Shown one piece after another: positions 9,026 to 40,655 of a DNA stretch of 44,625 nucleotides. The notes beneath the pieces were generated by a model, which was not told the DNA's origin, made no database searches, and worked only from the letters and a program-made list of their open reading frames with translations. The translations under genes and the position numbers were made by a program. Position 1 is the stretch's first letter. Each line of letters starts with the position of its first letter. Origin of the DNA: a virus; UHGV virus genome UHGV-0129366. One strand, given 5' to 3'.

Positions 9026-9158
9026 TCTTTGGGACTCCTGGCTGATTAAGTATGTCGATAAGGCGTTTCCATCCGTCACGTAATTTACGGGTGATTCGTT
9101 CAAGTAAAGATTCGGAAGGGCAGCCAGCAACAGGCCACCCTGCAATGGCATATTGCAT
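9018..9158 (-). CDS. cIII: CIII, FtsH inhibitor
   Basis: MQYAIAGWPVAGCPSESLLERITRKLRDGWKRLIDILNQPGVPKNG matches lambda CIII; AAGGAG SD upstream. Confidence 0.85.
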   Translation of the reverse strand: MQYAIAGWPVAGCPSESLLERITRKLRDGWKRLIDILNQPGVPKNG

Positions 9159-9379
9159 GGTGTGCTCCTTATTTATACATAACGAAAAACGCCTCGAGTG
9201 AAGCGTTATTGGTATGCATATAAAAAGGCCCTCACACTGGAGGGCAAAGAAGATTTCCAATAATCAGAACAAGTCGGCTCCTGTTTGGTTACGAGCGACA
9301 TTGCTCCGTGTATTCACTCGTTGGAATGAATACACAGTGCAGTGTTTATTCTGTTGTTTATGCCAAAAATAAAGGACGA

Positions 9380-10003
9380 TTATGCGACCTCGGAAGGAAG
9401 TCCAATCATCTTATTCAAATCTTCTACCCGTAAAGCAGGAAGTGCTGTACTTGCTTTATCTGCTTCTTTTGGTAGCAACTCTTTGCTTTCAGGCCAAACT
9501 TCAATAAGTCGCTTAACTGTTGTGACTGAGTTCAAAGCAGCCCATACATTTGATTCGATATCCTTTTTCTTGGCTTCAAGTTTTTGTTGCAATGCGCAGA
9601 TTTCATCAAACCTTTTTGTTATTTCGTGTTCTGCGCTAAACATGCATTTATCTTTGGTCGGAGTAGGGAGCAATATATCTTCGCCGTTGCCGTCTTTCCC
9701 ATATGAATACCAGCCAACCCTTCTGCCAGATACAGTCAGATAAATTGAAGTTGAACGGGCATCGCATGAGTAAAATGAACATCCCAGCTTTTCAAGTTCT
9801 TCGCTTATAGCCATTAACTTGGATGATAACTGATCCACTTCCTCAGTTTTCTTTTTACCGCCAAACGCAACAACTCTGGCGTCAAGTGCAAGCTGGTTCT
9901 TTAACTTTGTTACTTCTTCAAGCTCAGTGAAAACCCCAGATTTAATTAAAGCGTTACGAGCGATTTTCTCTTTCATTCTCGTAGTTAAGCGGATTGATGA
10001 CAT
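9380..10003 (-). CDS. Hypothetical early protein (about 207 aa)
   Basis: Start moved to internal ATG 10003 (MSSIRLTT...) preceded by GAGG; lies between N and cIII where lambda carries ral/ea10. Confidence 0.45.
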   Translation of the reverse strand: MSSIRLTTRMKEKIARNALIKSGVFTELEEVTKLKNQLALDARVVAFGGKKKTEEVDQLSSKLMAISEELEKLGCSFYSCDARSTSIYLTVSGRRVGWYSYGKDGNGEDILLPTPTKDKCMFSAEHEITKRFDEICALQQKLEAKKKDIESNVWAALNSVTTVKRLIEVWPESKELLPKEADKASTALPALRVEDLNKMIGLPSEVA

Positions 10004-10064
10004 ATTAATTCCTCTCAAATAAGTGGTTTGCTGCCTAATTTCATTTTCTGGCGACCAACACAAG

Positions 10065-10781: not shown

Positions 10782-11711
10782 CTAATCGATTGATTTAATA
10801 TCCCATTGAGGTCGAGAAACCAGAGTGTATCTGGGCTTGCCCTTACCAACAGTTTTTTTCAGGAACGTGGCTGTTGCAACGCTTCCTAAGTGCTTGTTTA
10901 TAATATCTGGGTCATCTACAGCTTTGTCAATGCTAGCGGTTCTGATATCAGTGTTACCTAAAACTATAAATTCACATTGGCGCTTGTTAGGAAGAGTTCC
11001 CAAAAATATAACGTTCTCAATAATTTTTTCCTGCTGAATGTTATCATTGCTGAGATGTTGATATACAGCTTCAAGCTGTTTTGGCTCTCTAAAAACGATG
11101 CTAAAACCTTGGCTTTTAAGTGTAAAAACTGTTTTATTTTCATGCAGATAATGAATGAATGCTCTGATTTTATCTAAGGCCCGAGAGTCTAAGTTTTCTA
11201 TAGCATCAGACAATTCTTCATCATCATTATCCAAGCTTGCCTGAAATATTTTTCTGGCCTTATTAATAGCTTTTGCTACTGGGGTTTCTTCATCGAATTC
11301 AAGAGGAGCATCAGGTCTAAACTCTTCAAGTACGAATCCGAAAGAACCACGGGCTGACGCGGTAATCATGAGATGATTATTTTCTATGTTTGGTATCTTG
11401 CCTGATGCAGGAAGTGGGCCATTGAAAGAGGTTGCCAAGTAAGCTATTGCATCATTAAAACAAGATATAGCTTTTGTTCCAAATACTGCTGAAATGCCAT
11501 GCGTGCCAACTACTGTTGGGCCTCTAAAAGTTAACACAGCATGCGTAGGTTCATGTTCTCGAACGTCAGCTTGTGAAATTAATCGCTCAACTTTCTCCAG
11601 ACGGTCTTCTAAGCTTTTTCGGCTAATAGAATGACTTGTTGGCATATTTTTTAATAGATTACTTATTTGCTCGCGCTCACTGAGAGCGAAAACATAATCA
11701 TTACGATTCAT
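10782..11711 (-). CDS. Uncharacterised protein, second gene of the rexAB-slot operon (309 aa)
   Basis: Long ORF, start overlaps the upstream gene stop by 4 bp (ATGA); no family recognised; contains an R-x6-H stretch (RAFIHYLH) of unknown significance. Confidence 0.6.
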   Translation of the reverse strand: MNRNDYVFALSEREQISNLLKNMPTSHSISRKSLEDRLEKVERLISQADVREHEPTHAVLTFRGPTVVGTHGISAVFGTKAISCFNDAIAYLATSFNGPLPASGKIPNIENNHLMITASARGSFGFVLEEFRPDAPLEFDEETPVAKAINKARKIFQASLDNDDEELSDAIENLDSRALDKIRAFIHYLHENKTVFTLKSQGFSIVFREPKQLEAVYQHLSNDNIQQEKIIENVIFLGTLPNKRQCEFIVLGNTDIRTASIDKAVDDPDIINKHLGSVATATFLKKTVGKGKPRYTLVSRPQWDIKSID

Positions 11712-12286
11712 TGTTTGACCCCCTCAGTAGTAGCCGAATTAAGTATAGTCATTGCCACAACATCAAGTTGTGGGTTTAACGGGATTTGGATAAATCCCTT
11801 CCACGACAGATCGCGTCTATGTGCCCACATACTGTACCAATATACAGTCATTTCAACAAGCTCATGACTTGGTAGATTAAGTTCTTGGAAGTAGGAATCT
11901 ACGAAAAACTCCTTCTTAACAAAATCATGATCAAATAGCTCTGGCTTTCTACCGATTACGATTGCATCATTATCGCCATTACTGAATTGAAAAAAGGTCA
12001 CAACATCGACATCATTCGGTGGCCTTTTTTCAATAAGTTCAATATGTTCTGTGAAGCTTCCATCTACCCACTGAAAACCTTCAACTAGCCCTGCTTGAGT
12101 GAGTGAAACACGAAAGTTAAGAAAACCCTTAAGGATTTTAATCCTTGCAGGGCTAAGCGAAAAAGTACTAACAAAGCGTACTATATCCATTTTGTATGGG
12201 GAACGAGTATGGCTTGTAGGATCAGCCTCGTCTATTGGGGGGATTAACCCCATCTCATTCCATAGAGAGACAGTTGGTATACTCAA
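11708..12286 (-). CDS. Uncharacterised protein, first gene of the rexAB-slot operon (192 aa)
   Basis: Begins 86 bp downstream of cI on the same strand; segment VDGSFTEHIELIEKRPPNDVDVV loosely resembles a GS...DxD nucleotidyltransferase-fold signature. Confidence 0.6.
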   Translation of the reverse strand: MSIPTVSLWNEMGLIPPIDEADPTSHTRSPYKMDIVRFVSTFSLSPARIKILKGFLNFRVSLTQAGLVEGFQWVDGSFTEHIELIEKRPPNDVDVVTFFQFSNGDNDAIVIGRKPELFDHDFVKKEFFVDSYFQELNLPSHELVEMTVYWYSMWAHRRDLSWKGFIQIPLNPQLDVVAMTILNSATTEGVKQ

Positions 12287-12372: not shown

Positions 12373-13089
<717 letters not shown>

Positions 13090-17606: not shown

Positions 17607-17685
17607 TTTATCCGGGGCTATATTCCTCACACGCCAGCAAAATCTGGCGTCGGGATTGGCGTCCCGGATAGAAACCGCGACAGAG

Positions 17686-17708
17686 ACACGCCGCGAGCGT
17701 GTTTTTTA
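17686..17708 (+). terminator. Putative intrinsic terminator in the ninE-roi intergenic region
   Basis: Hairpin acacg/ccgcgag/cgtgt followed by TTTTTATT. Confidence 0.4.
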
Positions 17709-17868
17709 TTGTCGTATGCACGCGCACATCTGAATTATGGTGGGCTGTGTGGGGGCGGAGAGATCCGCGCCGGTCGGTTTCCCGGTTACGCCAACCCTGC
17801 ACAGTTCACCGCCAGACGATTGGCGTCGTCGGTGGTGAGTCATTTAGAAACCACCGGAGAGCGTCACC

Positions 17869-37945: not shown

Positions 37946-38335
37946 TTAACATTTTCTTTTTACTTTTCCAACAAAAGCTTTGGTTGAATCCATATTCCCA
38001 TAACCAGAAATGGTTTTCGACATTAAAACTGTTCCATTAGGATGTATTACCCATGAGTCGATAACTCGTTGAGTTTCGCCATTCGCGCCGATTCCAATGA
38101 TGGAGTTTTTAGACAATGCTTTGTAAGCCATGCCGCCCGCATCTGTCCCAGAATATGTGATGCTGGCATCTTCACTGCTTGTCTTAATGATGAATGTTCC
38201 ACTAAAACCATCTTCTTCCGGATGGAAATTATTTCGTTCTGAATAGCTTATTCCGCGCATATCTCCAACGACCCAGCACTCTGCTGTAGCCCCAAAAGAT
38301 ATGAATAAGAACATAGCAGCAAGAAATTGCTTCAC
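37946..38335 (-). CDS. Secreted (signal-peptide) hypothetical protein
   Basis: GTG start 5 nt after AAGGAGG; predicted signal peptide MKQFLAAMFLFISFGATA then mature protein; in the sieA-equivalent variable slot. Confidence 0.5.
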   Translation of the reverse strand: MKQFLAAMFLFISFGATAECWVVGDMRGISYSERNNFHPEEDGFSGTFIIKTSSEDASITYSGTDAGGMAYKALSKNSIIGIGANGETQRVIDSWVIHPNGTVLMSKTISGYGNMDSTKAFVGKVKRKC

Positions 38336-38365
38336 ACCAACCTCCTTAGTTTTGAGCAGGATACC

Positions 38366-38731
38366 ATGAAAAAAGTTAACATTGGAAACGTACCAAAGAT
38401 GCTCGTTCCGCTCTTTGAGAGCGGTACAATTGTGTTTTGTAGAGACTTTCCAGAATGGCAACGCCTGCATCAAAAACTTGGCGTTGACGTGCATGACTCG
38501 GACGCCAACGGAGCGTCTCATACAATGAGCAGCGAGAATGGTGTTTTGCATGTGATAGGCGTGTTCAATGGCAAACTATCTACTATTGCCCATGAGTGCG
38601 CTCACATGGCATTCGATATCTGCTCAAGGGTCGGTGTTGATGTTGAACCAGGAAGAGCCAATGAGACTTACTGCTACTTAATGAGCAGGCTTGTTGAGTT
38701 CTGCGAGCGACATATCAAAAAGCCGGAGTGA
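38366..38731 (+). CDS. Small HExxH-motif protein (putative zinc metallopeptidase-like)
   Basis: 121 aa from ATG 38366; HECAH motif; divergent from the secreted-protein gene. Confidence 0.4.
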   Translation: MKKVNIGNVPKMLVPLFESGTIVFCRDFPEWQRLHQKLGVDVHDSDANGASHTMSSENGVLHVIGVFNGKLSTIAHECAHMAFDICSRVGVDVEPGRANETYCYLMSRLVEFCERHIKKPE

Positions 38732-38744
38732 CCCGGCTTGAGTA

Positions 38745-38924
38745 TTACTTTTTGCTGTCTGGAGTTCGCTTATCCAATACCCAGCCATGACCTGGCTTTG
38801 TTGTTGGTGGAAGCCTTTCGTTGTCCTTGACGGTTGCAAAATTGTCTTTCTTACCGCCGCGTGGGCCAACTTCTTGGTATATTCCGCCGTTTTTTCCTGT
38901 GTTTTCACCTGGTTTTTTCGCCAT
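38745..38924 (-). CDS. Small Gly/Lys-rich hypothetical protein (59 aa)
   Basis: MAKKPGENTGKNGGIYQEVGPRGG... with GAGG SD; start moved to internal ATG 38924. Confidence 0.4.
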   Translation of the reverse strand: MAKKPGENTGKNGGIYQEVGPRGGKKDNFATVKDNERLPPTTKPGHGWVLDKRTPDSKK

Positions 38925-39016
38925 GATATACCTCAACATATACCCGTTATTGGGCGATTAAATATTGATCTCATTTTATAAGTAGTCAATATGGCCCAGG
39001 TAAATGCAAAAATTAA

Positions 39017-39039
39017 CCCACCGTCAGGTGGGTTTTTTT
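39017..39039 (+). terminator. Rho-independent terminator (possibly bidirectional)
   Basis: cccacc-gtca-ggtggg followed by TTTTTTT. Confidence 0.55.
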
Positions 39040-39071
39040 ATCTTCTCTACTTTAAAGATTAAGGAAATACC

Positions 39072-39257
39072 ATGACCATAGAAGAACGTCTGAACAACAT
39101 TGAGTTGAATCAAACCCTGCTTGACCAGCGACTTTCAGATCTTGAGCTTAAAGATCTAGATGTGCAAATATCAGAAGCAGAAGCCAAGCTCTCCAGCTTA
39201 AACCACCGCAGGAAGCAAATCCGCGACAGAATTACTCGTGGACGCGGAGGCTGTTAA
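39072..39257 (+). CDS. Small coiled-coil hypothetical protein (61 aa)
   Basis: AAGGAA SD; heptad-like sequence; begins just after the terminator. Confidence 0.4.
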   Translation: MTIEERLNNIELNQTLLDQRLSDLELKDLDVQISEAEAKLSSLNHRRKQIRDRITRGRGGC

Positions 39258-39334: not shown

Positions 39335-39871
39335 TCAAACAACCCACCAGTTTGCCTGATTGGATACCAGCCTTGCAGTTTTTATGGAATTAATTATGCC
39401 ATGCTCAAGAGCCTTGTTAGCATCCAAAATGGTCGAGTCTGCTATCAGGGATGCCCACCTAATATGGGTTCCGATGTCGATATTGAACGTCTCAACGAAG
39501 CGATCAAGATCGTTATCGAGGCATTTCCCGTACTCTCTCAATCTGGCATGGTCGGCGGCTGGGGAGGCAAAGCACCATAATAGAGGATGTAACAGGAATC
39601 TTGATAATGGGTTTGCGAAACGTTCTGAGCCAGCCAGGAAAACGATATTAGCTATGGATTCAACATTGCTTATGTTGTGAGTTCTAACGGTAACAGGGAG
39701 TGACTTAAGAAAGTTATACGCAGTAAAGCCAGCGGCAGTTTCCCCTCCCTGACTTGATATATGGATATTTAATTCAGTTGCGCCTTGAGATAATGCGGTG
39801 AGACAGTGGTTCTGAAGTTGCCCAACAGTGGCAGTGTTAACGGGGCATAAGAAATGAATTGTGTGCAGCAT
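39335..39871 (-). CDS. ClpP/crotonase-fold serine protease-like protein, translationally coupled to mnt
   Basis: 178 aa; HISSQGGETAAGFTAYNFL parallels the ClpP YINSPGG...AG block; Ser (VESIAN), His (LLHPLL) and Asp candidates in ClpP order; start ATG overlaps the mnt stop. Confidence 0.5.
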   Translation of the reverse strand: MLHTIHFLCPVNTATVGQLQNHCLTALSQGATELNIHISSQGGETAAGFTAYNFLKSLPVTVRTHNISNVESIANIVFLAGSERFANPLSRFLLHPLLWCFASPAADHARLREYGKCLDNDLDRFVETFNIDIGTHIRWASLIADSTILDANKALEHGIINSIKTARLVSNQANWWVV

Positions 39872-40125
39872 TATTTATCATCCTTGCCATAAATCTTTTT
39901 AAGTGTCTCAAACACAACGGCCTTGAACTGCTCTGCTTGCTGATCAGCCAAGCGTTCAGCTTCGTCTCGATAGCCTGCAATCGGTGATGGCTTTGAGAGA
40001 GCATCCTGAACGATTTGTAATAACTCAGAGTTCATTGACCTTCCGTTAGCCTCTGCTCTTAATTTCAATTTTTCTCTTACTTCCAAAGGCATACGGAAGT
40101 TAAAGTGCGGATCGTTTCTAGCCAT
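39871..40125 (-). CDS. mnt: Mnt repressor (ribbon-helix-helix)
   Basis: 84 aa MARNDPHFNFRMPLEVREKLKLRAEANGRSMNSELLQIVQDALS... closely resembles P22 Mnt. Confidence 0.9.
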   Translation of the reverse strand: MARNDPHFNFRMPLEVREKLKLRAEANGRSMNSELLQIVQDALSKPSPIAGYRDEAERLADQQAEQFKAVVFETLKKIYGKDDK

Positions 40126-40215: not shown

Positions 40216-40374
40216 ATGAAAGGAATGAGCAAAATGCCGCAGTTCAATTTGCGGTGGCCTAAAGAAGTATTGGATTTGGTGCGTAAGGTGGCGGAAGAGA
40301 ACGGGCGATCTGTTAACTCTGAGATTTACAAGCGAGTGTTGGACAGCCTGAAGAGAGAGGGGATAACGGTATGA
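40216..40374 (+). CDS. arc: Arc repressor
   Basis: MKGMSKMPQFNLRWPKEVLDLVRKVAEENGRSVNSEIYKRVLDSLKREG matches P22 Arc; GTGAGG SD. Confidence 0.92.
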   Translation: MKGMSKMPQFNLRWPKEVLDLVRKVAEENGRSVNSEIYKRVLDSLKREGITV

Positions 40375-40592
40375 GGTTTATTGAGGTTGATGAGATTGGC
40401 TATGAGAATGCACTTGGTAGAGGTAAATCTTTAGTTAACATTGATGGCATTGAATCGATAAGGAGTGGTGAATTTACGGAGATCAGAATGATGTCAGGCG
40501 GAATCATTCCTTGCCGTGATTCAGTAGAGTCAATCAAATCAAAAATGAGTGGTCAGTGGCTTTATAGCTACAGTGACTTACAAAAACAGTGA
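40371..40592 (+). CDS. Hypothetical 73-aa protein inserted between arc and ant
   Basis: ATGA-coupled to the arc stop; no family recognised. Confidence 0.45.
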   Translation: MRFIEVDEIGYENALGRGKSLVNIDGIESIRSGEFTEIRMMSGGIIPCRDSVESIKSKMSGQWLYSYSDLQKQ

Positions 40593-40655
40593 AGCCCCAA
40601 CTGCGGGAACAGTCAGGGCTTCGGTATCGTAAAACCACGCATAGGAATTAACGAC

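Follow-up and report, generated by a model that had tools for sequence, protein, structure and literature searches.

The virus genome UHGV-0129366 carries four small open reading frames (ORFs A to D) between its gene 16 and mnt, and the question that they raise is whether they form a single cargo cluster that took the place of the P22 superinfection-exclusion gene sieA and its neighbours, as an earlier note on this DNA had proposed. We analysed them within the window, that is, the whole stretch of 44,625 nucleotides. All four ORFs were found as described, with their coordinates, orientations and ribosome-binding sites (Table 1). The region that they span (37,946–39,257) corresponds to the left half of the 'ant moron' in a P22-like phage (Lederbergvirus), a variable segment described in section 15 of PMC2629481 (Villafane, Casjens et al. 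2008). In that account the order is sieA–hkcC–orf59a–mnt–arc–ant in P22 and hkcB–hkcC–HkcD in HK620. The window shares with it the position between genes 16 and 9, hkcC, orf59a, the hairpins, mnt, arc, sar, ant and a high gene flux; it differs in that a Hex-family gene replaces sieA or hkcB and in an extra insertion, with orf61 and a ClpP-like gene, before mnt. The names hkcB, hkcC, HkcD/orf59a and sieA are taken from the HK620 and P22 annotations.

The features by which a moron is recognized are present: orf59a has its own promoter-like site and terminator, ORF A has a GC content of 40.5% against 47.7% for the window, and the region is variable or missing in relatives (81 loci surveyed here; section 15 of PMC2629481). 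Since, according to PMC2629481 (section 15) and PMC10883804 (section 24), the whole region is missing from the viable phages Sf6 and L, the proposal that it is non-virion cargo is supported. Profile searches matched ORFs A, C and D to PHROG families (phrog_2651, phrog_3202 and phrog_7586, respectively), whereas nothing usable came from Pfam or NCBIfam for any of the four, and PADLOC gave no convincing model, its sole match being PbeC to ORF D (E = 0.001). Sequence searches of the PDB returned sub-threshold matches only. ORFs A, B and C are true genes (protein conserved at 27–80% identity across genera); coding by ORF D is unproven.

We conclude that the region consists of three modules that assort independently: the slot gene (ORF A), a cassette of hkcC and orf59a (ORFs B and C), and, between the tMNT hairpin and mnt, an inserted segment that contains ORF D. 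DNA alignment shows that the block common to P22 and the window runs from the Shine–Dalgarno (SD) sequence and GTG of the slot gene through hkcC and orf59a to the tMNT hairpin, its right-hand end. Thus ORF A alone occupies the sieA slot; hkcC and orf59a are P22's own neighbours of sieA, intact there with DNA identities of 98.6% and 97.2%, and the notion of one unit that replaced them all has to be given up. The cluster as first drawn also omitted the ClpP-like gene, which shares an insertion with ORF D and lies beyond the coordinates first given. Hairpins were said to flank the genes. A strong one, placed at 39,017–39,039, does exist, with its stem-loop predicted at 39,015–39,034 (dG -15.5 kcal/mol), and a second overlaps the end of hkcC, but we found none between gene 16 and the end of ORF A, so that the description holds in part only.

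Table 1 Features of the region and its right-hand neighbours
Feature	Coordinates	Strand	Description
ORF A, slot gene	37946–38335	-	129 aa; Hex family, phrog_2651; AAGGAGG, 5 nt, GTG; sieA slot
Slot-gene expression platform	38336–38396	-	SD AAGGAGG plus sequence annotated in P22 as sieA promoter
sieA promoter (PsieA)	38366–38396	-	Overlaps first 31 nt of hkcC
ORF B, hkcC	38366–38731	+	121 aa, HECAH; candidate minimal zincin-type metallopeptidase, late-operon strand; HK620 hkcC annotation
Hairpin over hkcC stop codon	38720–38739	.	Terminator of orf59a transcript; P22 'mnt terminator', HK620 bidirectional terminator 'tORF59A'
ORF C, P22 orf59a / HK620 HkcD	38745–38924	-	59 aa, Gly/Lys/Pro-rich; phrog_3202 at 7e-31; convergent with hkcC
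orf59a promoter-like site	38961–38989	-	TTGACT, 17 nt, AATATT
Hairpin 'tMNT' (HK620)	39015–39041	.	dG -15.5 kcal/mol, z -4.9, U-run on + strand
ORF D, phage Emek 'orf61'	39072–39257	+	61 aa, predicted coiled coil, phrog_7586; doubtful gene
ClpP-like serine peptidase homologue	39335–39871	-	178 aa; CLP_protease 2.2e-11
mnt	39871–40125	-	Arc 3.4e-27, Repressor_Mnt 3.8e-12; Arc/Mnt repressor, anchor of immI region
sar RNA	40588–40654		

An interchangeable slot behind the sieA promoter

ORF A is preceded by the expression signals of sieA. The promoter in the window is identical to the annotated P22 PsieA at 31 of 31 positions, and the upstream 85 bp match at 84 positions the P22 fragment that drove functional sieA; that fragment sufficed for sieA function, in a construct that also had a gal promoter, so read-through is possible (PMC10883804, section 5). 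PsieA was missed by a consensus promoter scan. Between phages, homology ends precisely at the SD sequence or the GTG, and 12 unrelated gene families stand behind the same platform in the 81 loci. The slot product has a signal peptide, a lipobox or a transmembrane segment in all but one of these loci (80/81), SieA itself included. To our knowledge, the ant moron account of PMC2629481 covers neither the loss of homology at this point nor the envelope bias of the slot products.

P22 SieA (Leavitt et al. 2024, PMC10883804) and ORF A are alike in slot, promoter, ribosome-binding site, GTG start and envelope location, the last being predicted for ORF A, and both adjoin genes for ejection proteins, which SieA is thought to target. 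The two proteins share no sequence similarity, nor did ORF A resemble the SieA cluster from our slot survey. SieA crosses the inner membrane several times and carries the motif FxRYPxEAxxFNK (PMC10883804, section 13), whereas ORF A lacks this motif and, its signal peptide apart, any membrane segment.

The slot gene is a homologue of 434 Hex

ORF A is homologous over its full length to Hex of phage 434 (27% identity), with bridging homologues that link the two, and both match phrog_2651 with E values of about 1e-58 to 1e-60. The first gene had been read as encoding a signal-peptide protein, and this extends to the whole family: the N-terminus fits the −3/−1 signal-peptidase rule in 35 of 35 members, ORF A included, where cleavage is predicted after ATA18. 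The mature part of ORF A is a β-rich domain of about 111 residues with conserved Cys20 and Cys129. In the same 35 members it starts with x-C-W, has exactly two cysteines and lacks a hydrophobic segment (no hydrophobic 15-mer above 0.85 in ORF A). 434 Hex and Sf6 gp38 (phrog_2651) further share with ORF A a C-terminal STK.FVG...C and a prophage-expressed position (predicted for ORF A). The structure model of ORF A is of medium confidence, one of five models exceeding a pLDDT of 50. For most members of the family we rejected a lipoprotein assignment, as residue −1 before the cysteine is E, D, N or Q.

Genomic position varies within the Hex family. 434 hex follows cI within the PRM operon, whereas ORF A sits on the sieA platform in the sieA slot, with gene 16 and hkcC as its neighbours, and the slot after the window's lambda-type cI holds other genes. 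Hex-like genes elsewhere occupy the sieA slot in Pectobacterium, stand beside cI in Enterobacter and form an intact tandem pair at a phage-free Serratia locus.

Hex is required for the exclusion of P22 by lambda-imm434 lysogens of Salmonella (Susskind and Botstein 1980, cited in PMC3564112, section 3); on that citation, exclusion of P22 is known for 434 Hex from genetics, and ORF A is a candidate. Its homology to Hex, its sieA promoter, ribosome-binding site and start codon, and its secretion signal make it a good candidate, so that the exclusion role first suggested for all four genes is plausible for this one, in a region that is prophage cargo of a kind already known. We propose that the product would be exported by way of its cleavable signal peptide and fold into a small soluble β-barrel closed by one disulfide. 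In a lysogen it would most likely block superinfecting P22-like phages at the envelope, the Hex-family protein acting from the periplasm as SieA does from the inner membrane.

The hkcC–orf59a cassette and the insertion before mnt

The HExxH motif noticed earlier in ORF B is HECAH, and the protein belongs to a family of 514 clusters (E ≤ 1e-3), mostly of 100–140 residues among the matches listed. Across 50 members, with identity down to 22%, the only invariant columns are H76, E77, H80 and E100, which gives HExxH plus a family-conserved Glu at +20. In gluzincins such as thermolysin (H142/E143/H146/E166), likewise, HExxH lies on one helix and the Glu 20 residues on, on the next helix; the hkcC model (pLDDT 89.3) has helices at 71–88 and 100–116, with a β-hairpin before HExxH, and the protein aligns in ungapped register with thermolysin residues 132–179. 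Structural comparison of the model gave weak matches only. Besides thermolysin-type gluzincins, the nearest known counterparts are minimal zincins (minigluzincins, SprT/Spartan and ImmA/IrrE).

hkcC is unannotated in the P22 reference record BK000583. In the literature we found nothing on it beyond the epsilon34 paper; the P22 deletion study (PMC11016777) did not separate hkcC and orf59a, and the equivalent genes are absent from the BTP1 transcriptome paper. We could rule out that ORF B is the P22 ORFan pid, which sits between orf25 and orf80. Paralogues of hkcC follow the lysis genes in late operons and occur, too, in a lytic N4-like phage. Because hkcC is on the late-operon strand and its family extends to lytic phages, it is more likely a lytic-cycle gene than lysogenic-conversion-type cargo. 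The gene would be read together with the late operon and encode a mini zinc peptidase of the cytoplasm.

orf59a gave weak tblastn matches to a Clostridium phage 'YjzC family protein' (E = 4e-4) and scored 19.4 bits against YjzC (PF14168), below the Pfam cut-off of 25. The −35 and −10 blocks of its promoter-like site are kept, as judged by eye, upstream of homologues in loci L018 and L019. It would form a self-contained unit of promoter, gene and terminator, which lies on the other strand and whose expression would not depend on the late operon. The stop codons of hkcC and orf59a are separated by 12–13 nt in 71 of the 81 loci, and hkcC occurs without orf59a in the other 10. Klebsiella and Rosenbergiella prophages of siphovirus type have the pair, as does a metagenome contig (60–63% and 76–81% amino acid identity); these are the loci whose surroundings were inspected for phage type. 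Xenorhabdus and Proteus genomes carry it, too. We conclude that hkcC and orf59a are a convergent two-gene cassette conserved across genera and phage types.

Beyond the tMNT hairpin, the start of the ClpP-like gene overlaps the stop codon of mnt (TAATG), which predicts translational coupling. The ClpP-like gene is present in 7 of the 81 loci, the window included, and orf61 in 20, in several architectures. The insertion would accordingly combine a doubtful 61-residue ORF with a ClpP-like gene co-translated with mnt. We excluded ORF D from the XhlA family (PF10779), as its score of 15.5 bits is below the Pfam threshold of 34.7; no hydrophobic segment is visible in its 61 residues.

Alternative readings

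The sole biochemical paper on Hex (PMC3564112) gives it a cytoplasmic role, and on this model ORF A would be a 'repressor protection protein': it would stabilize lysogeny by inhibiting the autocleavage that RecA stimulates in the prophage repressor. That paper reports more frequent induction of hex- lysogens when the host is recA+, and in vitro a fragment of Hex prevented the 434 and P22 repressors from being cleaved; the GenBank annotation of 434 Hex agrees. Against it, the family-wide signal peptide and single cysteine pair favour export; PMC3564112 used a 158-residue ORF and never considered a signal peptide, yet E43, the N-terminus of its 'sHex', is the exact predicted signal-peptidase site. 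The window's repressor is a lambda cI, about 95% identical to 3bdn, and lambda repressor is, according to the same paper, reportedly not protected by Hex; moreover, the Serratia locus keeps its two intact Hex-like genes where there is no prophage repressor. We therefore consider a cytoplasmic repressor-protecting role of ORF A quite unlikely.

It is far less probable still that the four ORFs co-operate in a single system of defence or anti-defence. They sit close together and side by side, and one IMG/VR contig (L038) has the same combination at 99.7% identity. However, the 12 slot families beside a constant hkcC, the scattered distribution of orf61 and the ClpP-like gene, and the PADLOC result all speak against it, and none of the complete E. 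coli genomes or phage records searched covers 80% or more of the queried region. A narrower partnership, of hkcC with orf59a, is unlikely but deserves more credit: an orf59a product made in the lysogen could be removed or counteracted by late HkcC, or could restrain the peptidase, and the resident phage would thereby escape its own factor. The narrow convergent gap with its shared terminator and the independent promoter-like site of orf59a fit this, as does retention of the pair in five of six distant hkcC loci examined; these come from other genera and, wherever the surroundings were inspected, lie in siphovirus-type prophages. Serratia has an intact orf59a beside a decayed, truncated peptidase (HKCDH), which is what one would expect if the host gained from orf59a alone. 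Linkage by itself, however, shows no interaction between HkcC and Orf59a, and peptidases without orf59a exist, in the 10 loci above and as the ST64T/L orf129 paralogues. For ORF D, there is a substantial chance, if somewhat short of even, that it encodes no protein and is untranslated sequence, either closing the mnt operon or within a late read-through region. Its relatives are confined to four phage records, all at ≥92% amino acid identity, and differ by 2–5 synonymous against 5 non-synonymous substitutions with no third-position bias, so coding is not demonstrated; the other two frames behave alike, and the ORF directly follows a strong plus-strand terminator, with no promoter-like site. 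On the other side, it is intact with a good SD sequence in all copies, belongs to a PHROG family and shows conservative amino acid changes.

Implications

Our overall reading, which we hold to be probably right, is an ant moron of three modules: an exported Hex-family slot gene that probably blocks P22-like phages, a late hkcC with a self-contained orf59a, and an orf61/ClpP-like insertion. Of this, the identities and homologies of the genes, their motifs, the mosaic boundaries and the co-occurrence are observed, and the timing of expression, the periplasmic location and the exclusion and peptidase activities are predicted. New are the slot gene as a full-length 434 Hex homologue on the sieA platform, the 12-family slot, hkcC as a candidate minimal zinc peptidase and the convergent cassette. 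A broader generalization is decidedly tentative: that Hex-family proteins are disulfide-bonded mini-barrels of the periplasm, which keep P22-like phages from delivering their DNA, and not cytoplasmic RecA antagonists; that the sieA promoter, ribosome-binding site and GTG are a fixed platform for at least 12 unrelated envelope-targeted exclusion genes swapped at the start codon; and that hkcC–orf59a is a cassette of late peptidase and lysogen factor moving between structural operons of unrelated phages.

For hex, which genetics defined in 1980 as a superinfection-exclusion function, the slot gene offers a molecular lead; the sole biochemical description of Hex conflicts with the conserved export signal. 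The hkcC family comprises more than 500 clusters of HExxH proteins of roughly 110–130 residues, for which there is neither a Pfam family nor a solved structure, and the fixed pairing with orf59a is a clue to the substrate of the candidate peptidase. Our results suggest that a periplasmic protein may stand in for inner-membrane SieA, beside the genes for the ejection proteins, the presumed targets of SieA, and the 12 interchangeable envelope proteins on one platform provide a list of candidate exclusion factors in P22-like phages of E. coli and Salmonella.

Layout of the ant moron

The window derives from a P22-like phage or prophage. Its homologues of the P22 ejection-protein genes 20 and 16 extend to 37921; next come four small ORFs, the ClpP-like gene, mnt, arc, a 73-aa ORF, sar RNA and ant. 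The term ant moron, introduced in 2008 (PMC2629481), denotes the stretch from gene 16 to gene 9 in P22-like phages, which that study described as more fluid than any other part of the late operon. The HK620 record lists, in order, hkcB, hkcC (121 aa), the bidirectional terminator tORF59A, HkcD (similar to P22 orf59a) and the terminator tMNT.

An earlier note had read the four ORFs as one non-virion cluster replacing sieA and its neighbours, an observation that is confirmed in part. The ORFs are present as described, the terminator-like hairpin between ORF C and ORF D is real, and the reading as non-virion cargo is right. The single cluster did not stand. P22 itself carries an intact hkcC (P22 sequence L001, 2534–2899; unannotated in the reference record BK000583) with 98.6% DNA identity to ORF B, and its orf59a has 97.2% DNA identity to ORF C, so neither gene is part of a sieA replacement. 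In a four-way DNA alignment, the block common to P22 and others has its left edge exactly at the SD/GTG of the leftward gene and its right edge at hairpin 1; therefore, ORF A alone occupies the sieA slot. A separate insertion between hairpin 1 and mnt accounts for ORF D and the ClpP-like gene. The identical combination recurs in one IMG/VR contig (L038, 99.7% identity), and coverage of the queried region stays below 80% in all complete E. coli genomes and phage records searched. No hairpin was found between gene 16 and the 3′ end of ORF A.

Features of the ant moron and of other window regions considered here
Feature	Position	Strand	Description
ORF A	37946–38335	-	129 aa; AAGGAGG, 5 nt, GTG start
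ORF B (hkcC)	38366–38731	+	121 aa; contains HECAH
Hairpin 2	38720–38739		overlaps ORF B stop codon
ORF C (orf59a)	38745–38924	-	59 aa
Hairpin 1	39015–39034	+	U-run on this strand; dG -15.5 kcal/mol, z -4.9
ORF D	39072–39257	+	61 aa
ClpP-like gene	39335–39871	-	178 aa; ATG overlaps mnt stop (TAATG)
73-aa ORF	40371–40592	+	between arc and ant; also annotated in Emek (orf73) and E. coli prophages; absent from P22
cIII element	9113–9171		Lambda cIII thermoregulator element
Nmad5 protein	9380–10063	-	early-left region; 227 aa; Nmad5 'nucleotide modification associated' domain (Pfam 5.9e-71)
Gene pair at rexAB position	10782–12286	-	downstream of lambda-type cI (12373–13086)
Adjacent Rfam matches	17618–17816	+	isrK, 78 bits; C4 antisense RNA, 64 bits; its a1/b1 target, 51 bits

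The sieA slot as an expression platform

Immediately ahead of its start codon, ORF A has 85 bp that match, at 84 of 85 positions, the P22 fragment that, together with sieA alone, gave exclusion of at least 10^7-fold (PMC10883804). The annotated PsieA, which lies inside the first hkcC codons, is 31/31 identical in the window. We surveyed the slot in the window and in 80 IMG/VR contigs whose hkcC is at least 99% identical. Across these 81 loci, 12 unrelated families are represented among the genes read leftwards from the conserved SD: a 161-aa lipoprotein (18 loci); Hex-like proteins (13, counting the window); SieA (13); proteins with an N-terminal hydrophobic segment, comprising two 109-aa families (8 and 6) and families of 106 aa (5), 68 aa (2) and 99 aa (1); a 75-aa protein with three hydrophobic segments (8); a 62-aa protein with two (4); a 149-aa protein with a hydrophobic segment from residue 16 (2); and a 140-aa protein without one (1). 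The start codon at the platform site is GTG in 62 loci, and 80 of the 81 slot products carry a signal peptide, lipobox or membrane segment at the N-terminus. In Kapi1, too, the slot is occupied by proteins for which signal peptides are predicted. We read the slot as a platform for expression.

ORF A belongs to the Hex family

In phage genomes, tblastn detected close copies of ORF A in Emek and ST-35, and full-length matches at 27–28% identity to the gene directly downstream of cI in 434, Sf6 (gp38), HK446, HK633 and Sf101; the similarity to Sf6 gp38 is already recorded in the Emek GenBank note. ORF A and 434 Hex align end to end (E 3e-12), and both match phrog_2651 (2.7e-60 and 1.4e-58, respectively). 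A profile search retrieved 106 clusters, among them intermediates at 60, 57, 50, 45, 39 and 30–35% identity that span Enterobacterales and Aeromonas. In a Pectobacterium prophage a Hex-like gene (57% identity) fills the same slot, in Enterobacter one (50%) is convergent with the gene of a cI-like repressor, and Serratia fonticola has two intact tandem copies (39% and 30%) at a chromosomal locus devoid of phage genes. The Pectobacterium P22-like prophage also encodes, on the late strand between gp16 and the Hex-like gene (L008, 5409–5762), a 117-aa predicted lipoprotein (…FLSAC), a further envelope protein in the same region.

We scored export features in 35 diverse Hex-family members. The first 17–27 residues (17–22 in 34 members) are variable in sequence and have a hydrophobic core, with a net positive N-terminus in 33 members. 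All 35 have A/S/G/V at position -3 and A/S at -1, a mature part beginning x-C-W, exactly two cysteines (one at +2, the other close to the C-terminus) and no hydrophobic segment in the mature part. A lipobox is excluded for most members, because Cys is preceded in most cases by E, D, N or Q. The family thus looks exported.

The name hex of 434 stands for 'heterologous exclusion'. According to PMC3564112, P22 is excluded by Salmonella lambda-imm434 lysogens but not by hex- ones (Susskind and Botstein 1980, cited therein). The same paper reports that RecA-stimulated cleavage is inhibited by a Hex fragment when the repressor is that of 434 or P22, but not when it is that of lambda. The repressor of the window is lambda cI (~95% identical to PDB 3bdn), that is, the type that Hex reportedly does not protect. 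The published 'sHex' starts at E43 of a 158-aa reading (phage 434 sequence L005, 2423–2899) that has 24 extra N-terminal codons overlapping cI; E43 is therefore E19 of the 134-aa Hex, which is exactly the predicted signal-peptidase site. Signal peptide, membrane and periplasm all go unmentioned in that study, which never considers export. Taken together, Hex homology, the export signature and the platform suggest, as the most likely reading, that ORF A is expressed from the prophage, resides in the periplasm and excludes P22-like phages, and the earlier proposal of the slot gene as an exclusion candidate holds.

hkcC and the hkcC–orf59a cassette

An exhaustive profile search with hkcC gave 514 clusters at E ≤ 1e-3, mostly of 100–140 aa among the matches listed. 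Across 50 members with identities as low as 22%, full invariance is confined to H76, E77, H80 and E100; C103, Y104 and L105 are nearly invariant. Residues 66–113 align without gaps to thermolysin 132–179 by phmmer, a match that is not significant (E 0.09–0.7), in a register that places H76/E77/H80/E100 on H142/E143/H146/E166, the residues with which thermolysin binds zinc and which include its catalytic Glu. The structural model is confident (pLDDT 89.3) and has a β-hairpin followed by helices 71–88 and 100–116. Pfam has no family for hkcC, and 1 of the 50 members touches SprT-like. The gene shares the strand of the late operon, and no promoter-like site was found ahead of it; paralogues at 35–38% identity lie in late operons directly after the lysis genes (orf129 of ST64T and L; mEp554), and a homologue occurs in a lytic N4-like Pseudomonas phage. 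We therefore read hkcC as a lytic-cycle gene, encoding a putative cytoplasmic mini-peptidase. P22 late transcripts are thought to run through the ant moron as far as gene 9 (PMC2629481).

The stop codons of hkcC and orf59a lie 12–13 nt apart in 71 of the 81 P22-like loci, and hkcC occurs without orf59a in 10 of the 81. The convergent pair is also found in siphovirus-type prophages of Klebsiella oxytoca, Rosenbergiella and a metagenome contig (60–63% and 76–81% amino-acid identity), between the tail-tube/YdaY and tape-measure genes, and in Xenorhabdus and Proteus genomes. Upstream of orf59a a promoter-like site is kept (TTGAC(T/C), 17 nt, AATATT), and the gene has a terminator; its resemblance to YjzC is below threshold. 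A phage-free remnant of the module lies between usp and a CxxCxxCC gene in Serratia fonticola (L009/L010, 4428–5795), where orf59a is intact (78% identity), hkcC is decayed (truncated, HKCDH) and on the opposite strand, and the two tandem Hex-like genes are intact. The survival of orf59a beside a decayed hkcC fits a role of orf59a useful to the host and of hkcC useful to the phage only. HkcC and Orf59a are possibly peptidase and target, a candidate relationship.

ORF D, the ClpP-like gene and other cargo

ORF D occurs in four phage records only, all at 92% amino-acid identity or more, and its substitutions do not tell coding from non-coding. PGAP labels a longer version of the ORF as XhlA, a match below the Pfam threshold. 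ORF D may not be a gene. The ClpP-like gene, present in 7 of the 81 loci including the window, apparently retains the Ser and His motifs, as judged by eye, and has no PADLOC match. Since its ATG overlaps the mnt stop, the protein is probably made together with Mnt in the lysogen.

Elsewhere, the pair at the rexAB position encodes a 192-aa DUF6932 protein (Pfam 2e-26; PADLOC candidate PDC-M63A, 2e-10) and a 309-aa protein without family, a possible two-gene defence cargo.

Relation to known exclusion cargo

The region is of a kind already known, the ant moron with its superinfection-exclusion cargo. New here are the link of the slot gene to Hex and its export signature, a platform that is precise to the start codon and whose cargo is biased towards the envelope, the zincin signature of hkcC and the hkcC–orf59a cassette.
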